A stretch of 64,000 bases of DNA, taken from assembly GCA_016861085.1 (NCBI GenBank), contig BOKR01000001.1, positions 1,098,040 through 1,162,039 of the forward strand. The letters are read 5' to 3'. Both the position numbers and the translations under genes were made by a program. This stretch comes from Patescibacteria group bacterium (GTDB lineage Bacteria; Patescibacteriota; Microgenomatia; UBA1400; PJMF01). The first letter of the stretch is position 1, and each line of letters begins with the position of its first letter. Shown here one piece after another: positions 1,338-55,746 of the stretch. The notes beneath the pieces were generated by a model. The model searched no databases, was not told the origin of the DNA, and worked only from the letters and a program-made list of their open reading frames with translations.

Positions 1338-1676
1338 TTATCTTCTAAATACTAGAGTGAATCTAATTAATAAATACAATAATAACACCTGCCAGTAAAT
1401 ACAAAAGAACGTCACCATATTTGAAAAAAATGAAATCCAACTGCAGGCAAAAAAGCCAGTTTGGGCGCAACTAAATACAATCTGCACTGTCGGCACGAAA
1501 ACAAGTTTCCAAAAAATTGTCAAGAAACTAAGAAACAAACTAGGAAGTAATGCCATCCAAATAAAAATGTTCTGCCTCACTAAAGATTGCATTGTTTGGT
1601 ATGGGTGTAGTAACAAGCCTGTCGTTATTTGACCAAGTGAATAAATGAATGAAAATAGTATCCGTCTGAACTTCAT
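1338..1676 (-). CDS. small polytopic membrane protein, function unknown
   Basis: 112 aa, almost entirely hydrophobic helices. Tightly packed between the anti-sigma candidate and idi. Confidence 0.4.
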   Translation of the reverse strand: MKFRRILFSFIYSLGQITTGLLLHPYQTMQSLVRQNIFIWMALLPSLFLSFLTIFWKLVFVPTVQIVFSCAQTGFFACSWISFFSNMVTFFCIYWQVLLLYLLIRFTLVFRR

Positions 1677-1876
1677 ACTCTTTTTACCAGTTCGACAATA
1701 ATTGCTGAGAGTACAGATAAAACACTCAAGACAACAAATGTATGTTCGCCAATAAATGAGGTAAGTGGGTCGAACGGCTGAGGAATAATTCTTGAGCTAT
1801 ACAATTTTTGCTGCTGTTTAGCTTCGTTTTGTAATTGTTTCAAAAAATCATTAGTCATACTCAAACCATTACCCAC
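1673..1876 (-). CDS. small single-pass membrane protein, candidate anti-sigma factor
   Basis: 67 aa with a C-terminal TM helix. Overlaps the 3' end of the ECF sigma gene by 16 nt (translational coupling). Confidence 0.3.
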   Translation of the reverse strand: MGNGLSMTNDFLKQLQNEAKQQQKLYSSRIIPQPFDPLTSFIGEHTFVVLSVLSVLSAIIVELVKRV

Positions 1877-2385
1877 AATTCTTTAAATTCTTTTCTCGCT
1901 CGAAACAGATCTGATTCTACTGATTTAACACTTTTTTGTAATTCTATTGCTATATCGATCACTTTTTTATTATCAGCATACTTTAAGAGGAGAAGCTCGC
2001 TATAGTACTTTCTCATTTTCGATAAGACAACAGTGACCTTTTGCGAAACCTCATCACTATCAGAAATTTGATTTAATGGAAGCAACTCTGATAAAGGAAT
2101 TGTTTGCAAGGCTTTTTTAGCATACTTTTTTCTAAAATAATCTGCTACCTCATGACGAGCAATTGAATTCATCCACGTCCAAATACTAGATTTGCCTAAA
2201 AACAGAGGTAAATGCTTTAGACAGTTCAAAAAAGTCTGCTGAACAATCTCTTCAGCATCTTTTCTATTTGAAACTTTATACTCAATAACTCTCAGTAACC
2301 GAGCGGAATAGGTATTAAACCAGACTTTAACTGCGTGTTCACTACCAGTTTTTAATTCTTTAATAAGTTGTTGTTCATCTAGCAT
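1861..2385 (-). CDS. RNA polymerase sigma-70 family, ECF subfamily sigma factor
   Basis: Region 2 (AEEIVQQTFLNCLKHL...WTWMNSIARHEVADYFRKK) and a region 4 HTH (YSELLLLKYADNKKVIDIAIELQKSVKSVESDLFRARKEFKE). Confidence 0.8.
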   Translation of the reverse strand: MLDEQQLIKELKTGSEHAVKVWFNTYSARLLRVIEYKVSNRKDAEEIVQQTFLNCLKHLPLFLGKSSIWTWMNSIARHEVADYFRKKYAKKALQTIPLSELLPLNQISDSDEVSQKVTVVLSKMRKYYSELLLLKYADNKKVIDIAIELQKSVKSVESDLFRARKEFKELWVMV

Positions 2386-2474
2386 TCCTCACTATTGTAC
2401 AACAAATTATTGGTTCCCAGGGAAACTTACATACTTTTCATCAAGTATCGCCTACTATATAATAGTACTACCTT

Positions 2475-2855
2475 ATGTTTTTTGGATTAGTACCAACCGC
2501 TTATGCTCAGGCTGAAGTTAATGAAAGTCCCTGTGGCGCCGGCACTGGAGGTATTGATCTCGGAAACTGTCTGCGACTCTCAGATAGCACTAAAGTCAGC
2601 GACGTATATGATACTCCCGCGTTCTTAGTCAATTTATTCGTAAGCAATATTTTTGTTATTGCAGGTATTGTCTTCTTTCTTATTGTCATTGTTGCAGGAT
2701 TTAAATTTATTATGGGCGGACAAAAAGGCGCTGAAGACGCAAAAGGTATCTTCCAGGCAGCATTAACTGGTTTTATCATCATGTTTGCAGCATATTGGAT
2801 TATTCAAATTGTCGCCTTGTTGACCGGCATACAAATACCTGGAGTAAGCGAATAA
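2475..2855 (+). CDS. TrbC/VirB2-like T4SS pilin paralog P1 (short 12-aa leader ending YAQ, then 2 TM helices)
   Basis: Architecture is leader-AQ / TM1 / short loop / TM2. It is paralogous to seven downstream genes. An in-frame TAG lies immediately upstream of the ATG, so the short leader is real. Confidence 0.5.
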   Translation: MFFGLVPTAYAQAEVNESPCGAGTGGIDLGNCLRLSDSTKVSDVYDTPAFLVNLFVSNIFVIAGIVFFLIVIVAGFKFIMGGQKGAEDAKGIFQAALTGFIIMFAAYWIIQIVALLTGIQIPGVSE

Positions 2856-2856
2856 T

Positions 2857-3240
2857 ATGTCACTCTTTTCTTTCCCTAAAGTCTATGCTCAAACACCAGA
2901 AGAATTGGTTGGAGACATTGCAATCCCAAAGGGTGTTGACCTCATTAATCAAGACGCAGGTGGCATTGGGGTTGTTTTATTCATCTCTAATATGATCCGA
3001 CTTATTATTATTCTAGGAGGAGTGTGGGCACTTTTGAATATTATTCTTGCTGCATTTGCGTACCTTACTGGGGGCGGAAAACCAGACACACATAGTAAAG
3101 TCAGTAGTCGGTTCACCATGAGTGTTATTGGCTTGTTATTAATGATTGTTTCATACAGTATTGCAGCACTCATCGGTTTACTATTCTACGGAGAAGCATC
3201 ATATATCCTTACACCAACAATAACACCAATTGGTGGATAA
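2857..3240 (+). CDS. TrbC/VirB2-like pilin paralog P2 (short leader MSLFSFPKVYAQ)
   Basis: Loop motif FAYLTGGGKPDTHSKVSSRF between two TM helices. C-terminal tail ILTPTITPIGG. Starts 1 nt after the P1 stop. Confidence 0.5.
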   Translation: MSLFSFPKVYAQTPEELVGDIAIPKGVDLINQDAGGIGVVLFISNMIRLIIILGGVWALLNIILAAFAYLTGGGKPDTHSKVSSRFTMSVIGLLLMIVSYSIAALIGLLFYGEASYILTPTITPIGG

Positions 3241-3245
3241 CAGAT

Positions 3246-3827
3246 ATGAAAGTATTTTTAATAAAAGCAATCAGACAGATCATCTTAAGTATTTTTACTG
3301 TGTTAATTTTTGCAGGTGTACTATTTTCCCCTCAGCTTTCTATTACAAAACAAACTTTTGCAGCAGACGGGTGTGCATATGCAGGACACTGCATAAATAA
3401 CAAAAAATGTGTTTGCCCTATCCCTGGTTATTATGACTGCAGATATAGTCCCCAAGCTTTGGTTTTAGGTGAAGAGCCTTGCGGTTCTGCAATTATTGGT
3501 GGTGTTGAACCTCCAGCTGCAGTTGGAGCTATCAATGCTGCATCAGGTGGTGACATTGGTTTGATTTTTTTCATTTCTCGAGCAATTGGTTTTGCTAATA
3601 TTGTTGCAGGAATTCTAGTAATGATTAACTTTGTTGTCGCAGGATTTTTGTATGTGACTGGGGCCGGTAACCCTAGCAATATGGCTAAGATTAATGAACG
3701 GATGCTCTGGAGTTTTGTTGGTATATTAATAATAGTTGGTTCTTATTCTCTGGCTGCCTTGTTTGGCTTAATATTTTATGGAGATCCGACTTTTATCATT
3801 ACTCCAACATTAACAGGAGCAGTTTAA
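3246..3827 (+). CDS. TrbC/VirB2-like pilin paralog P3 with a Cys-rich N-terminal insert
   Basis: Full signal/TM leader, a Cys-rich ~50-aa insert, then a conserved 2-TM core (FLYVTGAGNPSNMAKINERMLWSF) and the tail IITPTLTGAV. Confidence 0.5.
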   Translation: MKVFLIKAIRQIILSIFTVLIFAGVLFSPQLSITKQTFAADGCAYAGHCINNKKCVCPIPGYYDCRYSPQALVLGEEPCGSAIIGGVEPPAAVGAINAASGGDIGLIFFISRAIGFANIVAGILVMINFVVAGFLYVTGAGNPSNMAKINERMLWSFVGILIIVGSYSLAALFGLIFYGDPTFIITPTLTGAV

Positions 3828-3863
3828 TAAATACTTGGTATAATAAAGAAAAGAAAAGTCAGT

Positions 3864-4235
3864 ATGTTACTACCAACACTCATTGCACAACAATTTGGAA
3901 GTTTTAAACCAACCTCACCTCTCGTCGAGGGCGCTGAAGAAAATCCGGGAGCAAACTTAGAAGCAATTATTTCAAATGTACTTGGGGTTTTAACAATTGT
4001 TGGTGGAATTTTCTTCATTATTTATTTTATGGTGGCATCCTTTGAGTGGATTACAGCTGGCGGTGATGCTGGAAAACTTACTACTGCGCGAAATAAAATG
4101 ATGCAAGGAGTTTTAGGACTCATTGTATTGGTCGCAGCGTATGGAATTATTGGTCTTATTGGTAGCTTAGTTGGAATAGAGTTACTTAAACCAGCTGAAC
4201 TGCTTGAAAGTGTCACACCTGGTACGGGAACCTAA
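3864..4235 (+). CDS. TrbC/VirB2-like pilin paralog P4 (short leader MLLPTLIAQ)
   Basis: Core motif FEWITAGGDAGKLTTARNKMMQGVLGLIVL is shared with P5-P8. Confidence 0.5.
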   Translation: MLLPTLIAQQFGSFKPTSPLVEGAEENPGANLEAIISNVLGVLTIVGGIFFIIYFMVASFEWITAGGDAGKLTTARNKMMQGVLGLIVLVAAYGIIGLIGSLVGIELLKPAELLESVTPGTGT

Positions 4236-4237
4236 TT

Positions 4238-4660
4238 ATGAAATACCTTTCAAAAAAAATTACTACAGTTTTAACAGCACTTGGATTATTTTTATCAAAA
4301 ATTGTTTTCGTTCATGCCCAAATCAAAAATCCTGTAACAGGAGAACTAGGTGCAGATGCAGAAGAAGCTGCTTCAGGAGAAATTTTTGTGAGTTATTTTG
4401 TTACTTTATGGAATGCCTTCATTACCATTGGCGCAATAGCTGTTTTAATCATGTTCCTCTGGGGGGCACTTGAATGGATTACCGCCGGTGGTGAAGCCAG
4501 TAAAATTGAGAAAGCTCGTAATAGAATTATGCAGTCTTTCTTAGGTTTGCTCATTTTAGTTAGCTCATTTGTAATTATTGGTTTTGTCAGTCAATTATTC
4601 TTTGGTGAGGAATTTTCTATCCTTAACTTAACATTTACACAGGTTGGAGGTGAAGAATGA
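4238..4660 (+). CDS. TrbC/VirB2-like pilin paralog P5 (full signal peptide ...VHAQ)
   Basis: LEWITAGGEASKIEKARNRIMQSFLGLLIL core. Starts 2 nt after the P4 stop. Confidence 0.55.
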   Translation: MKYLSKKITTVLTALGLFLSKIVFVHAQIKNPVTGELGADAEEAASGEIFVSYFVTLWNAFITIGAIAVLIMFLWGALEWITAGGEASKIEKARNRIMQSFLGLLILVSSFVIIGFVSQLFFGEEFSILNLTFTQVGGEE

Positions 4661-5178
4661 AACAACTTTTTTTGACATTTTTACTTTTGCTTTCAATTGA
4701 AGTTGGTGTAGTAACACAAAAAGTACAACTCACTTCCACTGTTTATGCTCAAGAGCCAATTGAGCTCAACTTTGGAGATGTTGCCGATGAACGGGAGATT
4801 ATTGGTACAGATCTATACGAACCAGATGATGGTGAAGCTGGTTTTGGTGCGTTAATTGGTCGAATATTAACAATAGTAGTCACAATTGCTTCTATTATGG
4901 TGTTAATCATGTTCCTCTGGGGTGGTCTAGAATGGATTACTGCTGGTGGAGATAAAAGTAAAATTGAAAAAGCTCGTAATAGAATTACACAATCCTTTAT
5001 TGGAATGATTGTATTAGCTGCCATGCTTGCTTTGTTTATGCTTTTACAACTTTTCCTTGACTTTGAAGTATTTACCTTTGGTGGAGGTTCTTCTAACACA
5101 TCCACACCTCCAAGTGTTCCTGGAAATCCTAGCCAACCTGGCTGGCCTGGAGCTCCTGGAGGAAACATACCTTTATAG
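4657..5178 (+). CDS. TrbC/VirB2-like pilin paralog P6 with a C-terminal Pro/Gly-rich tail
   Basis: LEWITAGGDKSKIEKARNRITQSF core. ATGA overlap with P5. Tail is PPSVPGNPSQPGWPGAPGGNIPL. Confidence 0.55.
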   Translation: MKQLFLTFLLLLSIEVGVVTQKVQLTSTVYAQEPIELNFGDVADEREIIGTDLYEPDDGEAGFGALIGRILTIVVTIASIMVLIMFLWGGLEWITAGGDKSKIEKARNRITQSFIGMIVLAAMLALFMLLQLFLDFEVFTFGGGSSNTSTPPSVPGNPSQPGWPGAPGGNIPL

Positions 5179-5190
5179 TAAAAAGTAAAC

Positions 5191-5220
5191 TTGACGTTCT
5201 GTCTCAAGCACAGGTATAAT
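5191..5220 (+). promoter_or_regulatory. sigma70-like promoter (TTGACG-N18-TATAAT) for pilin paralog P7
   Basis: TTGACG at 5191-5196 and TATAAT at 5215-5220. The RBS AAAAGGA precedes the ATG at 5269. Confidence 0.55.
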
Positions 5221-5268
5221 TAGTAATAAGTAGTCAGTAATTAGCTGAAAAATAAAAAAGGAACACAT

Positions 5269-5637
5269 ATGAGAAACAAACTCAACGGTTTAGCTCTAAC
5301 AGCAGCCGCATTTGTAACATCAGCTCCAGCAGTATTTGCACAAATTCAAGTTGAAGAACCAGATTCATTCTTCTTTTCTGATATTGGTACACTGATTAAT
5401 AAAGCACTTAACTTTGTTATGGTACTTGGTGCTCTTTTGGTCTTCATGTACCTCATCTGGGGTGGAATTGAATGGATTACTTCTGGTGGTGACAAGGGTA
5501 AGACTGAGAGTGCTAGAAACAAGATTACCGCTGCAGTTCTTGGTTTGATCGTCCTTGCTGCATCTTGGGCAATTCTTGGCCTCGTCCTTAACTTCTTAGG
5601 CGCAGGTTCATTAAATGATGTCTTAGATAACATTTAA
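5269..5637 (+). CDS. TrbC/VirB2-like pilin paralog P7, monocistronic; candidate major expressed pilin
   Basis: Signal peptide ...VFAQ, core IEWITSGGDKGKTESARNKITAAVLGLIVL. It has its own promoter, a strong RBS and an intrinsic terminator. Confidence 0.6.
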   Translation: MRNKLNGLALTAAAFVTSAPAVFAQIQVEEPDSFFFSDIGTLINKALNFVMVLGALLVFMYLIWGGIEWITSGGDKGKTESARNKITAAVLGLIVLAASWAILGLVLNFLGAGSLNDVLDNI

Positions 5638-5658
5638 TACAGATTAGTTTTTTGAAAA

Positions 5659-5687
5659 GCCCCTCATTTATGTGAGGGGCTTTTTTA
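5659..5687 (+). terminator. Rho-independent terminator after P7
   Basis: GCCCCTCA-tttatg-TGAGGGGC followed by TTTTTT. Confidence 0.8.
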
Positions 5688-5752
5688 TTGATTTGTTAAA
5701 GGGGTGTGCTCCTTCGTCACTCCTAAAAAATCAATGTTATAATTAATTCATC

Positions 5753-6190
5753 ATGACTGGAAAAAACTATTTCTCTAAACTTGAAAAAATTTTTATTGCT
5801 GGTGTTGCTTACTTATATTCAACTTCAACAGCATTTGCTCAAACTACTGCCTGGTCTGGTGTGTGTGTAGGTGGAGTTGATAATGACGTTGCAACTATCC
5901 AAGGTCTTGAGTGTTTGATTGCAAATGTTTTCACCGTCATAATTACATTAATTGGTTTAGCAGCATTTGTGATGCTTATTGTAGGGTCTGTGCGCTGGTT
6001 AGTCTCTGGAGGTAATTCCTCTAATATAGATAAAGCCCGAAGCACTATGACCTATGCGGTGATTGGAATTGTTGTTGCACTTAGTGCATTTATTGTGCTC
6101 AATTTAATTGCTGGATTTACTGGTGTTGAAACAATCAAAACATTTACCATTCCTACTTCAGAAGATGTTGAACCACCTCCAAGTCCGTAA
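5753..6190 (+). CDS. TrbC/VirB2-like pilin paralog P8 (divergent)
   Basis: Signal ...TAFAQ, core VRWLVSGGNSSNIDKARSTMTYAVIGIVVAL, Pro-rich C-terminus. Confidence 0.5.
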   Translation: MTGKNYFSKLEKIFIAGVAYLYSTSTAFAQTTAWSGVCVGGVDNDVATIQGLECLIANVFTVIITLIGLAAFVMLIVGSVRWLVSGGNSSNIDKARSTMTYAVIGIVVALSAFIVLNLIAGFTGVETIKTFTIPTSEDVEPPPSP

Positions 6191-6244: not shown

Positions 6245-9200
6245 GTGCACAAAAAAGTACTGAGACTTCTGGTTCTACAGGTATTGTTTTTGTTGGTCTC
6301 ACTTGCAAAATTTGCAACACCAACCCATACTTTTGCGTCCGAGTTAATTGGTACTCACCTGGGTGAAGGTGATGTTGGGTATCAAGTCAACATCATCAAT
6401 ACAATCCTCATTCCTAATGGTTTAGAACCAGGAAGCCCAGTGACAGTCATGGTGCCTGTCACAATGCTACAGTCAAGCCAACAAGGATCAGTGCAACAAC
6501 TGGCAGCTGTTGTAGCTGGTGGTGGATTTTTTCCTATAGTTAGAATTAATGGAGTTTGTGAAGATTTTACTTCAGAAACAGGGCTAGATGCAGGGCAAGC
6601 AGTTGACCTTGCTCGAAATATTTTTGGTTCACAAGCATTGATTGTCTGGGGAAATGAAATTAATAATAAAGAAAACGAATGCCGCAATTGGTCAAAATAT
6701 GTAAGTGATTGGGCAAAAATTAGTGGGAAATCAAACGTCAGTCCAGCTGCTCTTGATTATTATATGGGACTGGATGCCTATAAAGTTTCTACTATGTTTG
6801 CCGAAACTCCTGGGATGGCAGCAATATTTAATACTGCACCAAGAGCTGCAAATGCGTACGGTTGTATTGGCCAAACAGCAGAAAGTTGCGAACCACTTGA
6901 AACAGTCACTCAACAAATTGGATATGAAGCTATTAATGGGACTCTCTTCCTTACAGAGTTTTCACTTTCTCCTGGAGGGAGTGCTCCAAATGCCCCAGAC
7001 ACCAATATTCAAAAAGTTTTAGAATTTATAGCGAGTAGAGCCGGTGAGACTCCCGCTGTAAAAGTCACCCCCCTTGTCAGGAATGTTTGTAACAATGAGA
7101 GTGACTGGTTACTTTACATTAATGGTAAATTATTTACTCCTCAAGGTACCGAAGTTTCTGAAAACTGCGAAGGAAGATCTGCAGACTCTAGTTATGATTT
7201 GAGCATTTATCCTGAGTATGATGTTGATGAAACCAAATTTTTCCTTTCCCCCATCAGAAACGTTATTGACTCAGGAAGCCTCCAGAGAACTACTGAAAAA
7301 TTAAGAAAAGAACTCGCACTACAAGGATATCAAGCATACTGTGCAACTGAGGGAGTTAAAATTGAACCTGAATATAACACTCAAGAAAAAATTAATCGGT
7401 ATTTTCTTCCAGAAAATTATAAAGGAGTTCAAATACTTGAGTTAGATGCAGTCGAAACCCTCAATATGACCAATGCTCAATACCCATTATGGAGAGATGT
7501 GAGTAACAAGCAATTTTTGCTTACCTCTCTTGAGGAATATTTTGGCTTTCGCGATGTGTACGTTTCCAACCCAGCCGATGCAGTACTAAACAGTTCCCCT
7601 ATCAACTCACTTCTTTCTGAGCCACAACTTTGTATGCAAGGGTGGAGAAATTTAGTAGCCCAAGAACTAGCTTGTGAGAGATTACAAAACCCTGGTGAAT
7701 GCGAACTTTTTACCAGACCAATCCCCAACTCGGCAATACCATACAATCCAGGTGTTGGCCCAGAGCTGTCACAGCAACAACAAAATATAGCTCCTCTTCC
7801 AACTGAAACGGAATTTACAGTCAAAACCTTACTTGATAAGTTAAAAGAATATGAGCCTGCATATAGAGATGGTACTGCAAAAGTTGGCTGTGAAGCCCTG
7901 ACGACAACTGATAGAGCCAGCAATGAGGCACTTTTACAAGGCCTTATGAACACCCCAACATATTTTGACAGAGCCTACAGATACGGATTTCTTGTTGCAG
8001 CAATCCATGCTAAAGATCCTGGCACAGATGAAGGTAATATTGCTACAAAACTATTTAATTTCTTCACCAAGAGAACTAGAACTCTTACTCCAGATGACGA
8101 AGTCTTGGTAGCCGCCTTTAAAATCCCAGATATTGGAACAAATAAAGGTGGTGGAGATGATACCGGTTCTCAATTTTGGTCTGATCCACTTGATTTAACT
8201 AGACAATTACTATTTAAAAACAAAGATAATAAAACCCATGAAGATGTAGATAGACCAAATAAGAGACAAACTATATTAGACCGAGCTGTTGGAGCAGCAA
8301 CACAAAATTCGGGAAGTAAAATTTATTGTGTGGATGGAAATAAAGCAACGGTCTCTTGTCAGAATGAGTTAACAAAAGCATTAACAGATATTATTAACGG
8401 AAATGTAGAAGGTTGTGGTGAGGCTGAAGCTGTAAACGTGATAAAAGACCTTGCTGGACTTGATAATCCTGCAGAGAAATATGGGAAAGCATTTAATAGC
8501 GATAATGGTCAACAAGTTATGCTTAACTTATTCTTTAAAGACCTTACTCACCCACCTCTTGGGGGCAATGGCCAAACAAATCCACAAATAGCAAAGACTG
8601 ATGATCCTGCGGAAAAATTACAATCATTATTTACTATTTCTGAAGATACCTGGCCTCCTGCAGTTGATTCAACTACTGTAGACTTTTATATTGTGTATCC
8701 AATGGGTTTCGAGCTTGATGCAGTTGAAAAAGCAATGAAGAGTGCGTTCTTTACCAAGGCTCAATTAGCCGCTTTAGAGACTGGGAATACTGTGGGAGGG
8801 TTTGAAATGACTGGACAAGCAATTGGTCTTGATGCTGGGTCTGTAGGTTTTAATTATGTTGACGAAATAAAGACGGCAAATGGAGAATGCGGTACTGAAG
8901 TAGCTACTTCAGGTGCTGTTACAAACAAACCTTGCGAAGAAGAGGTCACTATTGGGGTTAAACAGGAAAGTGCTGGAGTTGGAATACTTGGTGCTGAATT
9001 GGGATATTGGATGAGAAAAATTCAACTTCAACTCAACTCTCGCGCCTCAGAAGCATGGGCATACTTTGATTCGTGTAAAACAACAGAAGAATTTTTGCTA
9101 GGTCAATGTACTGGTGGAAATATAACTGGAAATGAAGGCGATGATGCACCACCAGTTACTGGTGATGCACTGGAGTCAGTTGCTCAATGTGATGGTGGAC

Positions 9201-9763
9201 CAAGAATCACTTCAGGAGAAACAGCAGAACACGTGGATACAACTGGAACCGGTGAATGTACTGGGAAACTCACCAGACTTTTTGTACCTGATGTTCATAA
9301 CATATCTGCCTGGAAAAATCCTGGTGATGCTGTCATCGATTGTGAAGACTTATACTCATATGCCGATTGTACATATCCCGAATCCCTCGTTCAAAATCCG
9401 GTTAATAGCCAAGGACAATTCGTAGAATCTGGAAATATAACGGCATGTGAGTTTGTAGTTAATGCGGCCAAAAGCGCTGGAGTTAGTCCAAGACTTGCTT
9501 TAGCAATGTGGGGTGAGGAGTCTGGCTTTAGCCATTATCGAGTCGCAGATTTTGGTGTGATTTCTAAACCAGCCCAAGATTTAGGTGCCCAAGTGAACTC
9601 ATTTATTAACATCTTGAAATCATATTCTTCATACATTGAATTTTTAGAAGCCTATTCTGGTGAAGAACGCGGATCTGGTGATCAGAGTCCAAATCAATTC
9701 TGTAACAATCCTAATTTTGTTGGAAGATTAAAGACATACTACGATTTTCTAGGTCCACAATAG
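6245..9763 (+). CDS. Large (1172 aa) Cys-containing secreted/anchored protein with a C-terminal peptidoglycan glycan-hydrolase-like domain (ESG motif of SLT/GH73 type); candidate PrgK/TraG(pIP501)/VirB1-like cell-wall hydrolase
   Basis: N-terminal signal/anchor LRLLVLQVLFLLVSLAKFA. C-terminus AAKSAGVSPRLALAMWGEESGFSHYRVADFGVISKP resembles the ESG(W/F)...FG motif of PG glycosidases. The ~1000 aa in between are unassigned. Confidence 0.4.
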   Translation: MHKKVLRLLVLQVLFLLVSLAKFATPTHTFASELIGTHLGEGDVGYQVNIINTILIPNGLEPGSPVTVMVPVTMLQSSQQGSVQQLAAVVAGGGFFPIVRINGVCEDFTSETGLDAGQAVDLARNIFGSQALIVWGNEINNKENECRNWSKYVSDWAKISGKSNVSPAALDYYMGLDAYKVSTMFAETPGMAAIFNTAPRAANAYGCIGQTAESCEPLETVTQQIGYEAINGTLFLTEFSLSPGGSAPNAPDTNIQKVLEFIASRAGETPAVKVTPLVRNVCNNESDWLLYINGKLFTPQGTEVSENCEGRSADSSYDLSIYPEYDVDETKFFLSPIRNVIDSGSLQRTTEKLRKELALQGYQAYCATEGVKIEPEYNTQEKINRYFLPENYKGVQILELDAVETLNMTNAQYPLWRDVSNKQFLLTSLEEYFGFRDVYVSNPADAVLNSSPINSLLSEPQLCMQGWRNLVAQELACERLQNPGECELFTRPIPNSAIPYNPGVGPELSQQQQNIAPLPTETEFTVKTLLDKLKEYEPAYRDGTAKVGCEALTTTDRASNEALLQGLMNTPTYFDRAYRYGFLVAAIHAKDPGTDEGNIATKLFNFFTKRTRTLTPDDEVLVAAFKIPDIGTNKGGGDDTGSQFWSDPLDLTRQLLFKNKDNKTHEDVDRPNKRQTILDRAVGAATQNSGSKIYCVDGNKATVSCQNELTKALTDIINGNVEGCGEAEAVNVIKDLAGLDNPAEKYGKAFNSDNGQQVMLNLFFKDLTHPPLGGNGQTNPQIAKTDDPAEKLQSLFTISEDTWPPAVDSTTVDFYIVYPMGFELDAVEKAMKSAFFTKAQLAALETGNTVGGFEMTGQAIGLDAGSVGFNYVDEIKTANGECGTEVATSGAVTNKPCEEEVTIGVKQESAGVGILGAELGYWMRKIQLQLNSRASEAWAYFDSCKTTEEFLLGQCTGGNITGNEGDDAPPVTGDALESVAQCDGGPRITSGETAEHVDTTGTGECTGKLTRLFVPDVHNISAWKNPGDAVIDCEDLYSYADCTYPESLVQNPVNSQGQFVESGNITACEFVVNAAKSAGVSPRLALAMWGEESGFSHYRVADFGVISKPAQDLGAQVNSFINILKSYSSYIEFLEAYSGEERGSGDQSPNQFCNNPNFVGRLKTYYDFLGPQ

Positions 9764-16622: not shown

Positions 16623-16826
16623 CTAGTTATACAAAACTCTGTTCGCTTTTTCCATTGCACTTTTTTGATAATTTCTGATATAACTACAACAACCAAAATA
16701 ATTGTGGAATCTAGTGAAATTCTAGAACTGTGCCGCAACGGTAAATTTGGCTGATAATTCCAGATAAGTCCGGTCTTCAATCGTTTTGAGTATTGGGTAA
16801 CCAATACAAGTAATTACCAACGTGCA

Positions 16827-18965
16827 TTGGATATCATGCTATATCAACCAACCGTAGAACATATTCCCAGGTTTTTACCTTTTCAGGGTGAACGCTCGTT
16901 TTGCCCTTCACTACCTGAAAGAATTACTTCTGTTCACAAACAACTTTTGGAACAAAGATTGCTGTTTCAACAGTTAGTTACAGAACAACTTAGAAAAAGA
17001 AAAAACAAAAAAAAAGAAGCACTGCATTCCAAAAACTCTATTTGGGATGCTGTTAAACTAGCACAGAGATTTCAAAAACCAGAATACCATACAAGACAGG
17101 CAAAAATTGATTTATTACGCTTTGATGCAGTTCACCATGCAAAAGAAATGGCACTTGTTGAGCCAGTTACTACATTTAGCTATTGGCATACAGTAGAAAA
17201 CAATCAAACGCTAGGTGACGGATATTTTGAAGACATGGGCCTTATGCTCAATACCTTTACTCAGGATTTAGCCCAAAACGGGTTTAACGCCAATAGAGCA
17301 AGTATAGAGTCTATCACCTTTGAAAGAGCAAAAAATATTTTAACCAAAATCGCTACTACAGGAAAAAAAGATGCCCTCTTAATAACAAGTTTTCCAGATG
17401 ATATTGAATCTGGCTATCACGGAGTTGATTCTAAACATAATTGGGACAAACCAGAAACGCACCATTCTTTTTACTACTTATTACAGGTAGGTGCAATTCA
17501 TAAAGATAAAGGTGGTTCAGTAACACAGTTTGAAATACATACTACTCAGTTCCGGGCTTGGCCAAATGCTCGTCAAGCGATTCAATTTCATGAACAACTT
17601 GGCTCTCCACTTACTCAATTTGACGCTCCAATCCCTAATTTATTATTTGCAAACACGATTCAATTAACTCAAGAAAACTTGGAATCTATCGCTAGCAGCA
17701 TGGGATTAACTGGACAATCAAGTATCGAGTCACTATTTAGAGAAATTTTGAACAGCTCTTCAGAAGAACATAGTATAAACAGCACACATATTCCTAAAGT
17801 GAATCTTTCAGAATTCTGGCAGGTTCAAGAAAATTATTTTAACGATTTTTATCTCACTGTTGCCCTCCCCGTTTTTGAAGAAATTTCTCAATTAGAAAAT
17901 AAAAAAATGGATCAAAAAACACAAAAATATCTTCAAACAAAAATTGATTATTTAGATAAAGCCTTCTTTTACTATTCAAAAATTATTCTTGGGTGGATTA
18001 AGATCCATAATACCAATCCAAATTATCTGGCTACATTTGCAGAAAAAAGTCGCATTCAAAAACTTATGGACTTTCAACAGAAATTACTGTTACAACTTTT
18101 GGGACAAAAACAAACAAATGATATCCCAAGCATTGATGATCTTAAAACAGTACTTGATATTGACCATAGACTAGCAACTCGACAAGCTGTTACAGGTGAA
18201 GAAAAGAAAAAATTATTGAGTATATGGGGATTTTTTTCTTACGTTGGCAATTTTGCGAGCTTATTGCAGTGTGGGGCTATGACGCCTTTTTCTATTCCCC
18301 TTTCAATTATGAATAGCACTCCAACTATGGGAGTATCACTTGCAGAGTTTTCTGGCTCACTGGTATCTATCTCATTGCCAGAAAGACAAAAGTTTTTATC
18401 ACTACTACAAAAAGAAACATATATTGAACTTGACTTAACAAAGCAAACCCCAGCAGCAAAGCGAGTGTATGTTGTACCCAAAAGTTACCTTGATGGTGCA
18501 GGTTGTATTGTAAATGACTCAGGTGAAGTATTAGGACCTTGTGTTGACCCTGTAACAAAACAGAGAATTTCTCTTGATGATCCAAGGGATACATTGGCTT
18601 TTCCAATGACTCTTGCTGAATTTACGCAATATATTAATAAATTGCAACAAAGTATTGAACAAACATCACTAACACAAATAGATTCTATTTTTCAAACAAG
18701 TGATTTTTCACCAATTGAAAAAAGAAAAGCTCAAGCTGTTATAAAAAAAATGAGACAAAAATTGATAAAAAATTCACTTGGTCTGCAAGAATTTATTTCT
18801 GGAAATATAACAAATGATCTCGAGTCAAATAATATATGGCTTCAAGAGTTAATTTTGAAATTGGCGTTTTCTATCAATCCAGTTCAAACCCTTATTGAAG
18901 AGGTTGAGCTTAGATTAAGGGAAAAAGATCCTATTTTGGAAGAGATTTTTGAGCAAAATAGCTAG
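16827..18965 (+). CDS. Hypothetical protein (712 aa), function unknown
   Basis: Long ORF. First gene of a long plus-strand block that runs into virB4. Confidence 0.5.
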   Translation: MDIMLYQPTVEHIPRFLPFQGERSFCPSLPERITSVHKQLLEQRLLFQQLVTEQLRKRKNKKKEALHSKNSIWDAVKLAQRFQKPEYHTRQAKIDLLRFDAVHHAKEMALVEPVTTFSYWHTVENNQTLGDGYFEDMGLMLNTFTQDLAQNGFNANRASIESITFERAKNILTKIATTGKKDALLITSFPDDIESGYHGVDSKHNWDKPETHHSFYYLLQVGAIHKDKGGSVTQFEIHTTQFRAWPNARQAIQFHEQLGSPLTQFDAPIPNLLFANTIQLTQENLESIASSMGLTGQSSIESLFREILNSSSEEHSINSTHIPKVNLSEFWQVQENYFNDFYLTVALPVFEEISQLENKKMDQKTQKYLQTKIDYLDKAFFYYSKIILGWIKIHNTNPNYLATFAEKSRIQKLMDFQQKLLLQLLGQKQTNDIPSIDDLKTVLDIDHRLATRQAVTGEEKKKLLSIWGFFSYVGNFASLLQCGAMTPFSIPLSIMNSTPTMGVSLAEFSGSLVSISLPERQKFLSLLQKETYIELDLTKQTPAAKRVYVVPKSYLDGAGCIVNDSGEVLGPCVDPVTKQRISLDDPRDTLAFPMTLAEFTQYINKLQQSIEQTSLTQIDSIFQTSDFSPIEKRKAQAVIKKMRQKLIKNSLGLQEFISGNITNDLESNNIWLQELILKLAFSINPVQTLIEEVELRLREKDPILEEIFEQNS

Positions 18966-28635: not shown

Positions 28636-30177
28636 ATGCAAGTGATTGAGGTGCAAGAAAACCAAATAAAAGAAATCTGGGCAAGAGCGTGCGCACAGCT
28701 TGAAATACAGCTTTCTTCTGCTGTTTTTAATACTTGGATTGCTGCAAATCCTCTTACTAAATTGGAATATGGTGAAGAAAATACTTGCTTAGCTACAATT
28801 AGTAGCCCAACCGCATTCCATTCTACGAATCTTAAAAAAAATTTACATATCCCAATTAAGCAAGTCCTAGATAAAATTACTGGGAAAAACTGCGACATTC
28901 AGTATATTGTGGGGTCAACGAGTCCAAATATTCCCCAACAAGGATTTTCTACAATTCGCTCTTCCATTCAACCAGAATTACAACAAACAGAGCTGTCTGT
29001 TAATCAAACGGTCAACTCTGTATTCAATCAATCATTTTCTACTGATAAACAAACCAATTCTACTCAATCACCTCGAGTGGAAGATTTGTTTTCGCAAAAT
29101 AATTTAATTTCTGCTTCTGAAGATCGTGTTCAAGCTATTTCTAAAAGAATTGGGTTAAGAACTGATTTTACTTTTCAAACCTATGCTGTTTCACCTACAA
29201 ATGAAATGGCTCACGCTGCTGCACGAGCAGTCTCAGATCGTCCTGGAGTAGCTTATAATCCCCTTTTTCTTTATGGAGGTGTTGGAGTTGGTAAAACACA
29301 TCTCATGCACGCTATTGGAAACAACATTTTACGAAGCAACCAAGATGCAAAAATCTTATATTGTACAGGCGAAGAGTTCACTAATGAAATCGTTCAGGCT
29401 ATTCAAAGAAAACAAACTGGAGGTTTTAAAAGCAAATATAGAAATACAAACGTACTTTTAATTGATGATATTCAGTTTATTGCTGGTAAAGAAGCTGTTC
29501 AAGAAGAATTTTTTCATACTTTTAATGCGCTAACACAAATGCAAAGTCAAATAGTGTTAACCTCAGACAGACCTCCTCGAGATATGACCCTATTAGTAGA
29601 TCGACTTCGTTCCCGTTTTGAAGCTGGGCTGATGATTGATATTGGACAACCTTCAGATGAACTTCGTGCCGCTATTTTATTGGTTAAAGCAAGAGCTGCC
29701 AATTTACTTATCCCAACAGATCTCGCCAGAATAATTGTCTCAAAAGTTGACTCCGCTCGAAAAATTGAAGGTGTTATTAAAAGTATTCGTTCCGAAGTTG
29801 AGTTAAAGGGAAAACCCATTAGTCCTGAATTAATTGCTCAAATATTGGCTAGTGAAACTCCAGAAAAAAAATCGCTTCTTCGAGTTTCACCCTCTGACGT
29901 TATCAAAACTGTTGCCGACCACTATAAACTCAAACAAACAGCTCTTAAGGGACAAAGAAGAGTTAAATCTCTTGTTATTGCCAGACATATAGCAATGTTT
30001 TTACTCAAAAACGAGCTAGACCTCCCATTAGTTGAGATTGGCCGTTGGTTTAGTGGCAGAGATCATACTTCAGTACTTCACGCAGTTAAAAAGATTGAAA
30101 AAGATCTTGCAACTGATGAAATAATTAGGCGCGATATAGCAAACATAAGACTCACTCTTACTGCTGCTTCCAAGTGA
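28636..30177 (+). CDS. dnaA: Chromosomal replication initiator DnaA
   Basis: AAA+ domain GGVGVGKTHLMHAIGN, box VII/sensor motifs and a C-terminal domain IV (VARHIAMFLLKNELDLPLVEIGRWFSGRDHTSVLHAVKKIE). Confidence 0.95.
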   Translation: MQVIEVQENQIKEIWARACAQLEIQLSSAVFNTWIAANPLTKLEYGEENTCLATISSPTAFHSTNLKKNLHIPIKQVLDKITGKNCDIQYIVGSTSPNIPQQGFSTIRSSIQPELQQTELSVNQTVNSVFNQSFSTDKQTNSTQSPRVEDLFSQNNLISASEDRVQAISKRIGLRTDFTFQTYAVSPTNEMAHAAARAVSDRPGVAYNPLFLYGGVGVGKTHLMHAIGNNILRSNQDAKILYCTGEEFTNEIVQAIQRKQTGGFKSKYRNTNVLLIDDIQFIAGKEAVQEEFFHTFNALTQMQSQIVLTSDRPPRDMTLLVDRLRSRFEAGLMIDIGQPSDELRAAILLVKARAANLLIPTDLARIIVSKVDSARKIEGVIKSIRSEVELKGKPISPELIAQILASETPEKKSLLRVSPSDVIKTVADHYKLKQTALKGQRRVKSLVIARHIAMFLLKNELDLPLVEIGRWFSGRDHTSVLHAVKKIEKDLATDEIIRRDIANIRLTLTAASK

Positions 30178-52160: not shown

Positions 52161-53570
52161 ATGGCAAAAGGTGATACTGTTTTTGTGTGTCAAAATTGTG
52201 GTTGGACAACCGCTAAGTGGGTTGGTCAGTGTTATGAGTGCCACACATGGAATGCAATGGTTGAGGAGCTGCCAATTGAAACTATAGCGAACAAAAAATC
52301 TGCCAAAGCTCAAAAAATAGAAGATTTTACCGTTACTTTTTCTCAAGTGGAGACGCTGAGTGCTTCAAAATCAAGACTTTCAACAAATATCGATGAGTTC
52401 GACAGGGTTTTAGGTGGTGAAGATTCAAACTTTGGAATGGTTTTGGGAAGCGTGATGTTAATTGGTGGTGAACCCGGTATTGGAAAGTCAACCCTGCTGA
52501 CACAAATGGTAGTTGGTATGTTACAGCCAAGCAAGACCGGTAGTAGTAAATCTGAACACAAATTTATGTACGTCTGTGGAGAGGAAAATCCTGCTCAGGT
52601 GGCGCTTAGAATTGAAAGAATTGCCAAACAATTCCATGAGAATGTCACTACTGTCAAAGATAACTTAATATTTGTGACAACTGCAGATGTAGATGCTATC
52701 ACAGCTGCAATGCAAAAATTGAAACCCAGGTGTGTAGTTGTAGATAGTATTCAAACGGTTACAACAACTGACCTGAGTGGGGCGGCTGGGAGTGTGGGGC
52801 AAGTTCGTGAGTGTGCAGAGCGATTAACTACAACTGCTAAAGCATTACATATTCCATTGTTTTTAGTTGGGCATGTGACCAAAGAAGGAGTGATTTCTGG
52901 GCCAAAAGTACTAGAACATATTGTTGACTCAGTTCTTGAACTAAGTGGCGATAGAACAGGAGATTTAAGGATATTGCGGGCGATAAAAAATCGGTTTGGA
53001 GCTACGGATGAAGTTGGGGTTTTTCGAATGAGAGAATATGGCTTTGAATCAGTGTCAAATCCTTCTGAATTGTTTTTAGAATATGCAGATACTCAAGTAC
53101 CAGGCAGCATCACAGCATGTGTGATGGAAGGGACTCGGCCGTTGCTGGTTGAAATTCAAGCCTTAGTGGTTGAATCTCAGCTGGCAATGCCGCGAAGAGT
53201 AGGTCGAGGAATAAATTTACCCAGAATTCAAGTTCTTTCAGCAGTCCTGCAAAAGCACTGCTATTTACCGCTTGGATCAACAGATATCTTTGCATCGGTA
53301 GCAGGTGGGTTTGAAGTCAAAGAACCAAGCATAGACTTGGGGTTGGCGGTAGCGATGGCCAGTTCTTTAAATAATAAGCCAATAAAAGAGAAAACTGTTT
53401 TTATCGGTGAGATAGGCCTTTTAGGTGAAATCAGATCAGTCAATTTACTCGACAGAAGAATTAAAGAAGCAAAACGCTTAGGTTTTACGAATATAATCAG
53501 CAAAAAGACTCACAAATCAGTAAGACAAGTGCTTTCAGACTTACAGTTACTTAAATCAAAGACTACTTAG
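52161..53570 (+). CDS. radA: DNA repair protein RadA/Sms
   Basis: N-terminal Zn finger (CQNCGW...CYECHTWN), Walker A GGEPGIGKSTLLTQ, KNRFG motif, C-terminal Lon-like domain. Confidence 0.9.
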   Translation: MAKGDTVFVCQNCGWTTAKWVGQCYECHTWNAMVEELPIETIANKKSAKAQKIEDFTVTFSQVETLSASKSRLSTNIDEFDRVLGGEDSNFGMVLGSVMLIGGEPGIGKSTLLTQMVVGMLQPSKTGSSKSEHKFMYVCGEENPAQVALRIERIAKQFHENVTTVKDNLIFVTTADVDAITAAMQKLKPRCVVVDSIQTVTTTDLSGAAGSVGQVRECAERLTTTAKALHIPLFLVGHVTKEGVISGPKVLEHIVDSVLELSGDRTGDLRILRAIKNRFGATDEVGVFRMREYGFESVSNPSELFLEYADTQVPGSITACVMEGTRPLLVEIQALVVESQLAMPRRVGRGINLPRIQVLSAVLQKHCYLPLGSTDIFASVAGGFEVKEPSIDLGLAVAMASSLNNKPIKEKTVFIGEIGLLGEIRSVNLLDRRIKEAKRLGFTNIISKKTHKSVRQVLSDLQLLKSKTT

Positions 53571-55746
53571 CATATCGCTCTCGACTGACTTGCACGACCT
53601 TATCTTTACCAAGATTGCTTGACGTAGCAAGCGGTAGCGTCAGGGCAGGGAACGGTTTGGAGACAATATTATCTATAGAGAGTTTGTTAATGATTTGGTA
53701 TCTACTCAACGAAACAAGGTCTTCTTGAGAATATCTGCTGCCAAACTCTTTTGTAAAAACTGAAGCGTCATCTGCTCCCATCACAAAACTGACCATGCTT
53801 CCACAGTTACCAAAGATAGCTTTCTGCACTTCCTCTGGAATTTGTGCAATATATTGGTTTGCAAGGATAAGGTCTAGGCGATATTTTCTAGCTTCTGACA
53901 AGATTTTAGTGAATGAGTCGGTGGCAAAATTCTGAAACTCGTCGACATACAGATAAAAATCTTTGCGTTCTTCCTCTGGGAGATTGACTCTTCCCATAGC
54001 TGCTAGTTGGATTTTTGTAATTAACATTGAACCAAGCAGAGTAGCATTATCTTCTCCCAACTTACCTTGGGATAGGTTAACCAACAGAATTTTGCCCTCA
54101 CTCATTGCGTCTTCAATACTAAATGAGCTTTTACGGGCGTTAACGATGTTTCTGACCAGAGGAGAAGAAACAAACTGACCAACTTTATTCAAGATAGAAG
54201 CAATAGATTCTGTCCTTTGCTTTGGCAGCATTTTATCGTATTCATCGACCCAAAATGATTTTAAAATCGGGTCATCAAGTTTCTCAACAATGCCATCTCT
54301 AAATTTCTGATTAACGAGCAGATCGAGTACATCAGAAAGCCGAGCTTGATCAGTTTTAAGTAAAGTGAGTAAGGAATTCCGTAAAATATACTCAAGTCTA
54401 GGTCCCCAAGAGTAGGCATAGAGTTTTTTGAAGACTGAAACAATACCAGAGGCAATTAGTTCTCTATGAACGACATTTTCACCTTCAAACAGGTTTAGTT
54501 TGACAGTTCGTTCAGTATCACTTGGGTCAAAGTAAATAACATCATTGATCCTACGTTTTGGAATGTAGTTTAAAAGGGTTTCAACTAGGTCACCATGAGG
54601 ATCGATGACACACATACCTTCATCATTCTTGAGGTCGTTTATAGCCATGTTAGCCAGCAGAGTGGATTTACCTGTACCAGTTTTTCCAATGACATACATA
54701 TGGCGCCTGCGATCGGAGCGTTTGAGTCCATAGATTACTTCTTTATTCTTAAACTCAGTCTTTGCAAAGACATTGATATCTCGTTTTACCTCTGGATCCA
54801 TGTCCTTGGTAACCACAGGCAGGTCTTCAGGGGGTTCTCCAAGCAGATTCTTTCCCCAAGCAATATTAGGAATCGTTGAGAGTTTTTCACTTGGCATGTG
54901 CATGAGGGTAGCCATTTCTTCAAGAGATAAGTGAAAACTGACCACAGCTTTATAGTCTCGAGCTTTCATGTGTTTTAGGAACCTACCTTTGAAGAGATAG
55001 GTTTTTTTGAGTCGAAGTGAATTACCCTGGTGGTCATTGAGTGTTTCATAGGCGCTAGCAAGATTTTCAAGTAGGTTTTTACTTCTTTGCTTATCGGTTG
55101 AGCCTAGTGCCATACGAATAGAAACTCTCAGTGCAAGGTCTTTTTCTTTTGTGGACGGTTTTTCAGTAGATTCTGTCGTGGTAGAGCTCACAACAGAAGA
55201 AAGAATGCTTTTAGGTGATTTACTGACAATGTATTGCAATACGACCTTATCGTGTTCTTCAAGTTTAGAAAGAGTAGATAAAATGGGGGCGAGGGTATCT
55301 ACTTCGTGGAATGCTTTGTAGGTTTTAATTGAAAGATGCTCCGCATTTCGTAGTGCTAAGCTGCCCATTTCAAAAAAATATTCTTCGTTGGTGTCATGGG
55401 TTGGTTTTGGGTTGATGTAGTAATCCAAAGAATCATGTTGAATTTCTTTTATAACAATCTCGGGATAACTAGAAACTAATATGCTTTTAATATAAGTAAT
55501 CAATCGAACTGGTACATATGCTTGAAAAAATATGGTTTGATTTTCAACTATTATCTCAAAAGAGATTGATTCGTTTTTACCCAGGATTCTCCAGAACCAC
55601 ATGTTTTTGAGGCTGGGGAGTGAAGAAAAGAGTTGAACTGCCGATTCTGGGGTGTGTTGTGAGTCTCTGCTGGTGCGTAACTCGAGGATAGTGTGTGGTG
55701 CTGACATATGCAAAACAAGTATAGCATTTCTAGAGAAAAGGGTCAT
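53563..55746 (-). CDS. T4SS coupling-protein-like ATPase (VirD4/TraD/TraG-type), with no evident N-terminal TM anchor
   Basis: YVIGKTGTGKSTLLANMA (Walker A) followed by CVIDPHGD, then LYVDEFQNF (Walker B-like). Lies ~25 kb from virB4. Confidence 0.5.
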   Translation of the reverse strand: MTLFSRNAILVLHMSAPHTILELRTSRDSQHTPESAVQLFSSLPSLKNMWFWRILGKNESISFEIIVENQTIFFQAYVPVRLITYIKSILVSSYPEIVIKEIQHDSLDYYINPKPTHDTNEEYFFEMGSLALRNAEHLSIKTYKAFHEVDTLAPILSTLSKLEEHDKVVLQYIVSKSPKSILSSVVSSTTTESTEKPSTKEKDLALRVSIRMALGSTDKQRSKNLLENLASAYETLNDHQGNSLRLKKTYLFKGRFLKHMKARDYKAVVSFHLSLEEMATLMHMPSEKLSTIPNIAWGKNLLGEPPEDLPVVTKDMDPEVKRDINVFAKTEFKNKEVIYGLKRSDRRRHMYVIGKTGTGKSTLLANMAINDLKNDEGMCVIDPHGDLVETLLNYIPKRRINDVIYFDPSDTERTVKLNLFEGENVVHRELIASGIVSVFKKLYAYSWGPRLEYILRNSLLTLLKTDQARLSDVLDLLVNQKFRDGIVEKLDDPILKSFWVDEYDKMLPKQRTESIASILNKVGQFVSSPLVRNIVNARKSSFSIEDAMSEGKILLVNLSQGKLGEDNATLLGSMLITKIQLAAMGRVNLPEEERKDFYLYVDEFQNFATDSFTKILSEARKYRLDLILANQYIAQIPEEVQKAIFGNCGSMVSFVMGADDASVFTKEFGSRYSQEDLVSLSRYQIINKLSIDNIVSKPFPALTLPLATSSNLGKDKVVQVSRERYAK

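Follow-up and report, generated by a model that had tools for sequence, protein, structure and literature searches.

An ordered array of divergent VirB2-type pilin genes, with a candidate major pilin and copies with ultra-short leaders, in a Microgenomatia-type Patescibacteria genome

An array of eight pilin genes

A tandem array of eight small genes, here named P1 to P8, lies at positions 2475-6190 of a 64,000-nucleotide stretch of the genome of a Patescibacteria group bacterium (GenBank assembly GCA_016861085.1, contig BOKR01000001.1, positions 1,098,040 to 1,162,039 of the forward strand), referred to below as the window. Within the genome, which is of the Microgenomatia type (BroJett025), the window lies close to oriC. 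By homology, the gene products are all VirB2-type pilins of type IV secretion systems (T4SSs), and the eight genes probably constitute a T4SS pilin module, that is, a fixed, ancient and non-interchangeable set in which P7 is the major pilin and the other copies are specialised minor pilins that co-assemble with it. This reading draws on the conserved order of the genes in related genomes, on purifying selection and on expression signals around P7 that recur in its orthologs. An initial annotation, made from the sequence of the window alone, had described the array as an expressed pilin with a reservoir of variant or silent cassettes or, alternatively, as a set of co-assembled minor pilins. The evidence favours the second description, the assembly itself being what we infer. 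The eight genes are as follows.

P1, 2475-2855, plus strand: 126 amino acids (aa); 11-aa leader MFFGLVPTAYA↓Q; conserved Cys pair in the N-tail; weak match to Pfam T4SS_pilin, 16.5 bits
P2, 2857-3240, plus strand: 127 aa; 11-aa leader MSLFSFPKVYA↓Q; Pfam 19.6 bits
P3, 3246-3827, plus strand: 193 aa; signal peptide of about 40 aa; conserved Cys-rich module in the N-tail
P4, 3864-4235, plus strand: 123 aa; 8-aa leader MLLPTLIA↓Q; Pfam T4SS_pilin 32.4 bits
P5, 4238-4660, plus strand: 140 aa; 27-aa signal peptide; Pfam 26.0 bits
P6, 4657-5178, plus strand: 173 aa; 31-aa leader; Pro/Gly-rich C-terminal tail; Pfam 33.7 bits
P7, 5269-5637, plus strand: 122 aa; putative major pilin; 24-aa signal peptide; helical hairpin; Pfam 45.6 bits, E 7e-12
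P8, 5753-6190, plus strand: 145 aa; 29-aa signal peptide; conserved Cys pair in the N-tail; Pfam 39.2 bits

The listing of open reading frames (ORFs) gives the same coordinates for these eight consecutive genes as had been annotated before, and the architecture then proposed for all of them is also found: a leader is followed by an acidic N-tail, a first transmembrane (TM) segment, a short positively charged loop and a second TM segment. The N-tail has a charge of -2 to -9 in all eight copies, and a hydropathy scan resolves the hairpin in every copy except P8, with two TM segments each and loops that carry +1 to +2. Acidic N-tails combined with basic loops fit a hairpin with the N-terminus outside and the loop inside the cell. 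The loop motif W(I/L)T(A/S)GG(D/E)xxKxxxARNxI, previously assigned to five copies, is exact in P5, P6 and P7, whereas P4 and P8 match a relaxed version only. The Cys-rich insert reported for P3 contains six Cys residues that are conserved in the ortholog alignment and, like the conserved Cys pairs of P1 and P8, it is located in the N-tail. The C-terminal tail common to P2 and P3 (TPTITP/TPTLTG) is real by comparison of the two proteins. The tail of P6 is Pro/Gly-rich as described, but it contains no collagen repeat; the lengths of P6 orthologs vary widely (110-260 aa). Within P1-P6 the genes are separated by 1-5 nucleotides (nt) or overlap, the start of P6 overlapping the stop of P5 (ATGA), except that the P3-P4 gap, which had been included in this range, is 36 nt long. 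The leaders of P3 and P5-P8 span 24-40 aa and end in AxA; the range of 20-30 aa given earlier is too narrow for P3 (about 40 aa). Production of a P1-P2 fusion by read-through or frameshifting was considered and is ruled out by the different reading frames of the two genes and by upstream in-frame stops.

Positional orthology across related genomes

Related loci were collected by a scan with a profile of P7 orthologs, taking one genome per species, which gave 80 loci that all carry a P7-like gene. Array genes were detected with a hidden Markov model (HMM) trained on the family and assigned to classes by their best match to the paralogs of the window. The order of the classes P1 to P8 is identical in all 80 loci. 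The commonest patterns are 1-2-4-5-6-7-8 and 1-2-3-4-5-6-7-7'-8, P3 is missing in some loci, and P1 orthologs stand at the first array position in 71. As each position has its own ortholog across genera, the array is to be seen as an ancient fixed set of unlike subunits and not as a shuffling reservoir. The classes differ in conservation: the median identity to the ortholog in the window is 56% for P7 and 54% for P8, the second most conserved class, and 41-50% for the others. P7 itself is identical to a protein of Patescibacteria group bacterium BroJett025, and its close homologues occur in Woesebacteria and Pacebacteria of the Microgenomates group. Many of the array-bearing records have titles such as 'uncultured Pseudomonadales', 'Vitreimonas sp.' and 'candidate division TM6' and are probably mislabelled metagenome-assembled genomes, although the TM6 record CP011212.1 (locus L068) is a complete genome.

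Two further kinds of gene were seen in the related loci and are absent from the window. An extra, longer P7-like paralog (170-260 aa), which has no terminator signature, often lies between P7 and P8 (loci L011-L016, L020, L022, L039, L045, L051 and others). Moreover, about 20 loci encode, mostly 3-6 kb upstream of the array, proteins of 350-540 aa (one of 966 aa) in which a signal peptide and a large extracellular domain precede a pilin hairpin at the C-terminus (e.g. L013:601-1938, L014:1997-3190, L056:1082-2584 and L081:10795-13695). Fusion of the hairpin to large extracellular domains suggests that a pilin hairpin can serve in the display of domains. The termini of the subunits face outwards in F-type pili, and by analogy the N-terminal modules of the array pilins would decorate the surface or the tip of a filament.

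P7 as a probable separate transcription unit

The initial annotation had credited P7 alone with a promoter, a strong ribosome-binding site and a terminator. P7 does have the best promoter and the only strong terminator of the array, but -10 boxes are also present at P1, P4 and P8, and the strongest Shine-Dalgarno sequence of the eight belongs to P6 (GGAGGTGA). The expression signals of the array are listed below.

P1 promoter-like site, 2435-2463, plus strand: 10/12 match; TATAAT at 2458-2463 ends 11 nt before the ATG
P4 extended -10 element TGgTATAAT, 3836-3844, plus strand: read from the sequence, inside the 36-nt P3-P4 gap
P7 sigma-70 promoter TTGACG-18-TATAAT, 5191-5220, plus strand: 11/12 match
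P7 intrinsic terminator, 5654-5685, plus strand: 14-bp stem and T-run
P8 promoter-like site with extended -10 element TG-TATAAT, 5714-5743, plus strand: 10/12 match; ends 9 nt before the ATG

The special status that had been given to P7 is borne out by the related loci, in which it is the most conserved copy and in which its promoter and terminator recur. Of the 80 P7 orthologs, 54 are preceded by a sigma-70 site that matches at 10 or more of 12 positions, a score reached by 4 of 80 shuffled controls. Downstream, 67 of the 80 have a hairpin and T-run resembling a terminator, with a median folding free energy of about -17 kcal/mol, whereas such hairpins follow 0-6% of P1-P6 orthologs, 11% of P8 orthologs and 3 of 37 extra P7-like genes. 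The gaps that isolate P7 are likewise larger, with medians of 83 nt (P6-P7) and 72 nt (P7-P8) against 3-12 nt within P1-P6. At 58-84% identity, the P7 orthologs share the near-invariant core ALLVF.YLIWGGIEWITSGGDK.KTE.ARNKIT. In enrichments of Paceibacteria, T4SS pilins have been reported to rank within the top five secreted genes by expression (PMC10936435). The simplest reading of these signals is that P7 would be the major, abundantly made subunit.

A different use of the same genes, which we regard as rather unlikely, is that the paralogs or the sub-operons P1-P3, P4-P6, P7 and P8 provide alternative major pilins, each produced under a particular condition or on a particular host, perhaps switched by an extracytoplasmic function (ECF)-like sigma factor, and giving different pilus surfaces, a use that has been proposed for the virB2 families of Anaplasma, Ehrlichia and Bartonella. 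The separate -10 elements before P1, P4, P7 and P8 would suit such switching, as would the sigma factor gene that is conserved together with a putative anti-sigma ORF beside the array in 57 loci, and host adaptation has been suggested for Patescibacterial arrays (PMC12102498). However, most copies are kept in order across genera, P3 and the extra P7-like gene being the exceptions, and the signature of a strong promoter with a terminator is found on P7 only. Furthermore, the gaps of 1-5 nt or overlaps within P1-P3 and P4-P6 suggest co-translation of unlike subunits, and P7 is far more conserved than the other copies, which is unexpected of equivalent alternatives.

Relation to VirB2-type pilins

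Profile searches with Pfam, NCBIfam and hhalign favour pilin families for the paralogs, in agreement with the VirB2/TrbC-like family named initially. PF18895 (T4SS_pilin) is the top Pfam match for seven of the eight copies and the second for P1. Its gathering score of 26.6 bits is exceeded by P4, P6, P7 and P8, P7 having the best score of all; P5 falls 0.6 bit below it, and P1-P3 match weakly (16-22 bits). P4 and P7 also match TrbC/VirB2 (PF04956) weakly, at 15-17 bits. The divergent copies can be connected to the rest through their relatives: hhalign comparison with the P7 profile gives 96.6% (E 5e-10) for the P1 ortholog profile and 97.3% (E 2.5e-11) for that of P3, P2 and P3 are 40% identical (E 2e-28), and P5 and P6 are 47% identical. 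When the whole window is scanned with the HMM trained on the family, the eight ORFs are detected and no others. As judged from these comparisons, the array is real and homologous throughout, far beyond chance.

A connection with monoderm conjugation systems is also hinted at. The NCBIfam model NF045849 (Mbov_0395 pilin-like conjugal transfer protein), whose cutoff is 40 bits, scores 37.1 bits with P7 (E 2e-9) and 28.7 bits with P4 (E 8e-7) over the whole hairpin; both scores are below the cutoff. The AlphaFold2 model of P7 is a helical hairpin with helices at 39-70 and 76-109 and block-mean predicted local distance difference test (pLDDT) values of 83-96. Its top Foldseek match in the PDB is 8dfu, the conjugation pilus of Aeropyrum, which is not significant (E 1.3, probability 0.82). 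Searching the PDB by sequence with the P7 profile yielded nothing significant, the matches being chance ones to CD20.

It is improbable, in our view, that these proteins form no pilus, their hairpins staying in the membrane as parts of a channel or of the envelope, or belonging to another two-TM type such as holins or immunity proteins. Such a reading would accord with the monoderm conjugation systems that have no pilus and with the fact that no filament has been imaged, as well as with weak Pfam matches to Phage_holin_3_6 and to domains of unknown function and with a weak NCBIfam match of P1 to the pLS20 conjugation transmembrane protein. Against it, the best profile matches are to pilin families, the holin match having an E value of 0.15, and the extreme conservation of the P7 core would fit a packed polymer. 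The surface-type modules of the N-tails and the fusions of the hairpin to extracellular domains suggest surface display.

Sequence variation between strains

To follow variation at the locus, the same region was compared in five public assemblies that were retrieved by exact P7 identity. Two of them are identical to the window over the compared region, and three carry a second haplotype that is about 1.3-1.5% divergent without insertions or deletions. Between the two haplotypes, the eight genes differ at 33 synonymous and 3 non-synonymous positions, giving a ratio of non-synonymous to synonymous changes (pN/pS) of 0.028 and a P of 9e-18 under neutrality; two of the three non-synonymous changes lie in signal peptides and the third is V131I. 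P4 has 10 synonymous and no non-synonymous changes. The recombination or mosaicism between cassettes for which strain comparison had been recommended is not seen in these two haplotypes, which differ by point substitutions only.

It is highly improbable, therefore, that P7 is the one expressed pilin into which silent cassettes recombine in the manner of pilE/pilS, even though it has the strongest expression signals and many diverged copies stand in tandem: all eight copies are complete ORFs with their own starts and promoter or ribosome-binding signals, the best inter-copy repeat is a 118-nt core at 78% (P5/P6) and 63% (P7), the longest exact inter-copy runs are about 19 nt by eye, no conserved recombination blocks of the pilE/pilS kind occur between copies of the array, orthology is positional in 80 of 80 genomes, and the short-leader copies are conserved as such and not decaying. 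On the sequences compared, the silent-cassette or antigenic-variation reading is contradicted.

Pilins with ultra-short leaders

Leaders of 9-12 aa had been claimed for P1, P2 and P4. They are real, with lengths of 11, 11 and 8 aa, respectively, and longer N-termini are excluded, as stated before for P1 and P2, by in-frame stops 4 codons upstream in both genes; in P4 an in-frame stop 12 codons upstream of the start likewise makes a longer leader impossible. Orthologs were counted as having a short leader when the longest possible ORF allows at most 14 aa, the P6 class being counted by the distance to an anchor. A hydropathy rule for calling signal peptides in orthologs was dropped after it had misassigned P1, P7 and P8 of the window. 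The numbers of short-leader orthologs are given here by class.

P4 class: 58 of 70
P6 class: about 35 of 54, with leaders of 4-8 aa
P1 class: 32 of 66
P2 class: 18 of 56
P8 class: 11 of 71
P5 class: 7 of 65
P7 class: 7 of 118

The short leaders follow conserved patterns, M(I/F)LPTLIAQFG in P4 and M.F.(L/I)(I/V)P.(A/V)(Y/F)AQ in P1, usually with Ala at -1 and often with Gln at +1. In other lineages, members of the same class have a full signal peptide that ends in the same motif, or no leader. A near-consensus TATAAT ends 4-14 nt upstream of the ATG in many of the short-leader genes of the classes P1 (23 of 32), P4 (22 of 57) and P8 (8 of 11). Such proximal -10 elements imply leaderless or nearly leaderless mRNAs and thereby fix the starts independently, most clearly in P1; for P1 of the window, too, the TATAAT 11 nt before the ATG implies a nearly leaderless mRNA. 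Gln at +1 is present in all eight copies of the window and in 66 of 71 P8 orthologs. The notion that an invariant N-terminal Gln is functionally required, as for a VirB2-like cyclisation, was downgraded, as only 37 of 118 P7-class proteins have Gln at +1.

With 8-11 residues, to our knowledge, a leader cannot work as a Sec signal peptide. Insertion of a hairpin with translocation of the N-tail, similar to that of the Pf3 coat protein by YidC, would be consistent with the acidic N-tails and basic loops. P1, P2 and P4 probably reach the membrane by a YidC-type route like that of the Pf3 coat protein, inserting as N-out hairpins with no Sec signal peptide, and may be trimmed at the AxA↓Q site that they retain. 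No signal peptidase gene was found in the window. We put forward only tentatively the more far-reaching proposal that the filament is obligately heteromeric and ordered, is built from 7-9 ancient paralogs, and includes pilins of the P4, P6, P1 and P2 classes that become membrane-bound without a Sec signal peptide, by means of a conserved hydrophobic AxA↓Q leader of 5-12 aa.

T4SS genes and other neighbours of the array

The array is encoded together with T4SS genes in the same window, although not adjacent to them. Origin-region genes are found in the window as well, namely dnaA (28636-30177), dnaN, rnpA, yidC and a gene for a KH/R3H-domain (KhpB-like) protein. The T4SS genes and the genes that flank the array are listed below.

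23934-25115, plus strand: PrgI (VirB3-like); Pfam PrgI 28.3 bits
25149-26333, plus strand: TrsD-like protein resembling the N-terminal part of VirB4; NCBIfam VirB4_plasma N-terminal part E 6e-8, TrsD E 7e-4
26354-28462, plus strand: VirB4-like ATPase (CD1110 family), directly upstream of dnaA; NCBIfam 383.5 bits (cutoff 325), Pfam P-loop_TraG and CagE_TrbE_VirB
1861-2385, minus strand: ECF-like sigma-70 family factor, divergent from P1; Pfam Sigma70_r2 and r4_2
1673-1876, minus strand: 67-aa ORF with a single TM segment that overlaps the sigma factor gene; possibly an anti-sigma factor
1338-1676, minus strand: 112-aa membrane ORF that follows the 67-aa ORF
6245-9763, plus strand: 1172-aa secreted protein directly downstream of P8, with a lysozyme-like C-terminal domain (predicted peptidoglycan hydrolase)

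The sigma factor is found next to the array in 57 of the related loci and the 112-aa ORF in 54, and the sigma factor and its neighbours may regulate the P1 operon. The 1172-aa protein follows the array in about 27 loci. It has no Pfam matches; its C-terminal domain, however, has a lysozyme-like fold. Members of the family occur in the Microgenomates group only, distant ones with Pfam SLT_3, and one homologue ends in a T4SS_pilin domain. The protein is thus, on these features, a putative muralytic partner of the VirB1 type that was missed by profile searches.

Several other features lie further from the array. The large ORFs between the array and PrgI have no Pfam or NCBIfam matches; they include a 712-aa ORF (16827-18965), preceded directly by an adenosylcobalamin (vitamin B12) riboswitch (16679-16837, plus strand; 51.4 bits against a gathering score of 50), and then a 1439-aa ORF (18999-23318). 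A VirD4/TrwB-like coupling ATPase (53563-55746, minus strand; TrwB_AAD_bind, TraG-D_C) is encoded 25 kb from VirB4, and no relaxase was found among the ORFs scanned in the window. A pilin of the type found in type IV pili and type II secretion systems (63324-63887, plus strand; N_methyl, T2SSG) belongs to a separate fibre system in the same region of the genome. Upstream of the window, a mevalonate-pathway set (L001:1-5351) that comprises GHMP kinases, a thiolase, an HMG-CoA synthase-like protein and HMG-CoA reductase adjoins the NUDIX gene at the left edge of the window.

A model for the pilin module

We hypothesize that the module belongs to a chromosomal T4SS of Microgenomatia-type Patescibacteria (candidate phyla radiation, CPR) that would be related to monoderm conjugation machinery. 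All eight proteins are VirB2-type hairpins that would have arisen by ancient duplication, with a predicted topology of an acidic N-tail outside, a first TM segment, a positive loop inside and a second TM segment. P7 would be transcribed alone from a strong promoter and its transcript closed by the terminator, so that it could be made in large excess. P1-P6 are probably organised in two operons that start at P1 and P4, and together with P8 they would be low-abundance, specialised pilins, which would co-assemble with P7 as priming, tip or adaptor subunits. The variable N-tails, such as those with a putative disulfide loop (P1, P8) or the Cys-rich module (P3), would be exposed on the outside of the filament. 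Together, the pilins and the 1172-aa hydrolase would form a surface organelle through which the PrgI/TrsD/VirB4 machine contacts and breaches the host cell.

Several considerations weigh against this model. We know of no Patescibacterial T4SS for which a pilus has been observed, and pili are normally absent from monoderm T4SSs. Some 18 kb separate the array from VirB4, and this interval holds unannotated genes in both orientations. The fold search with P7 is not significant, a modelled helical hairpin being too simple a fold, and the -10 promoters of P1, P4 and P8 would also be compatible with expression under particular conditions. Selection was estimated from two haplotypes only, and sampling by exact P7 identity makes the absence of amino acid changes in P7 true by construction. 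Similarly, the related loci were fetched through similarity to P7, which places arrays without a P7-like gene outside the sample. The major and minor roles were assigned from sequence, and co-assembly and the insertion route of the short-leader pilins are what we infer.

Comparison with known systems

The array belongs to a kind that has already been published. In Southlakia epibionticum, a succession of predicted pilin genes in the T4SS cluster was reported to be essential (Wang et al. 2023, PMC10633639). A survey of 3,035 Patescibacteria genomes with PF18895 and PF04956 found 441 arrays of 2-11 pilins in 383 assemblies, especially in Microgenomatia and Saccharimonadia, with a mean inter-copy identity of 25%, and pointed out that the T4SS lies close to dnaA (Quinonero-Coronel et al. 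2025, PMC12102498); the array findings are repeated in a 2025 review (PMC12857230). At least two VirB2-like genes in tandem or one gene apart, with VirB4 present, define an array in that survey, and this is the arrangement found in the window. The arrays of Southlakia epibionticum ML1 (SEML1_0006-0019) and Nanosynbacter lyticus TM7x show the same tandem, divergent PF18895/VirB2-like pilins with a monoderm-type T4SS near dnaA. The inter-copy identity of the present array is within the published range, and its distance from virB4 is about 18 kb. In PMC12102498, a term search found no mention of orthology between arrays or of signal peptides, and for this reason the cross-genus positional orthology, the purifying selection, the autonomous P7 unit, the ultra-short leaders and the linked lysozyme-like giant protein appear to be new.

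Antigenic variation or host adaptation has been suggested for the arrays by analogy with Bartonella and Anaplasma (PMC12102498); the present data do not favour this suggestion of antigenic or host-range variation. The virB2 families of Anaplasma, Ehrlichia and Bartonella likewise comprise several tandem VirB2 paralogs beside one T4SS. According to the passages that deal with them in PMC12102498, these are diderm P-type systems whose paralogs are thought to be varied or differentially expressed for immune evasion. The present array differs in that its copies are ancient, occupy constant positions and evolve under strong purifying selection. The pilE/pilS system of Neisseria also combines one strongly expressed pilin with related copies. 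The pilS copies lack promoters, ribosome-binding sites and 5' ends and share conserved DNA blocks with pilE, and neither such truncation nor shared blocks are encountered here.

The logic of the array resembles that of type IV pili and type II secretion systems, in which an abundant major pilin is produced from its own strong unit and a conserved operon encodes minor pilins for priming and for the tip, although fold and machine are unrelated. Pilins of those systems have class III leaders that are cut by a prepilin peptidase, and no class III leader motif occurs in the array pilins. A small two-helix hairpin with a basic loop, as in the array pilins, is found in VirB2/TrbC, in F-type TraA and in the archaeal Ced/Ted systems (8dfu). 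VirB2 has an A↓Q-type leader cleavage site like that of the array pilins; a long signal peptide is typical of VirB2 and TraA, whereas three of the eight array copies have none. The Mbov_0395 family of integrative and conjugative elements of Mycoplasma (NF045849) also belongs to a monoderm T4SS, and the array scores below the cutoff of this family. The likeness hints that hairpin pilin-like proteins exist in monoderm conjugation systems, in which case the Patescibacterial pilins need not have been borrowed from diderm systems.

Implications

Few envelope machines have been shown to be indispensable to Patescibacteria living as epibionts, and T4SS pilin arrays are one of them. At least in Microgenomatia, the data point to a fixed multi-subunit organelle with a major pilin, position-specific minor pilins and a linked hydrolase. 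This offers targets for further work, namely P7 for the purification of filaments, the minor pilins for roles at the tip or as adaptors, and the hydrolase for breaching of the host wall. It also draws attention to a conserved class of pilins without signal peptides. If the heteromeric and Sec-free reading is true, it implies a route of pilin insertion and maturation that is undescribed for any T4SS, and YidC-type translocation of the N-tail followed by trimming would be one candidate for this route.

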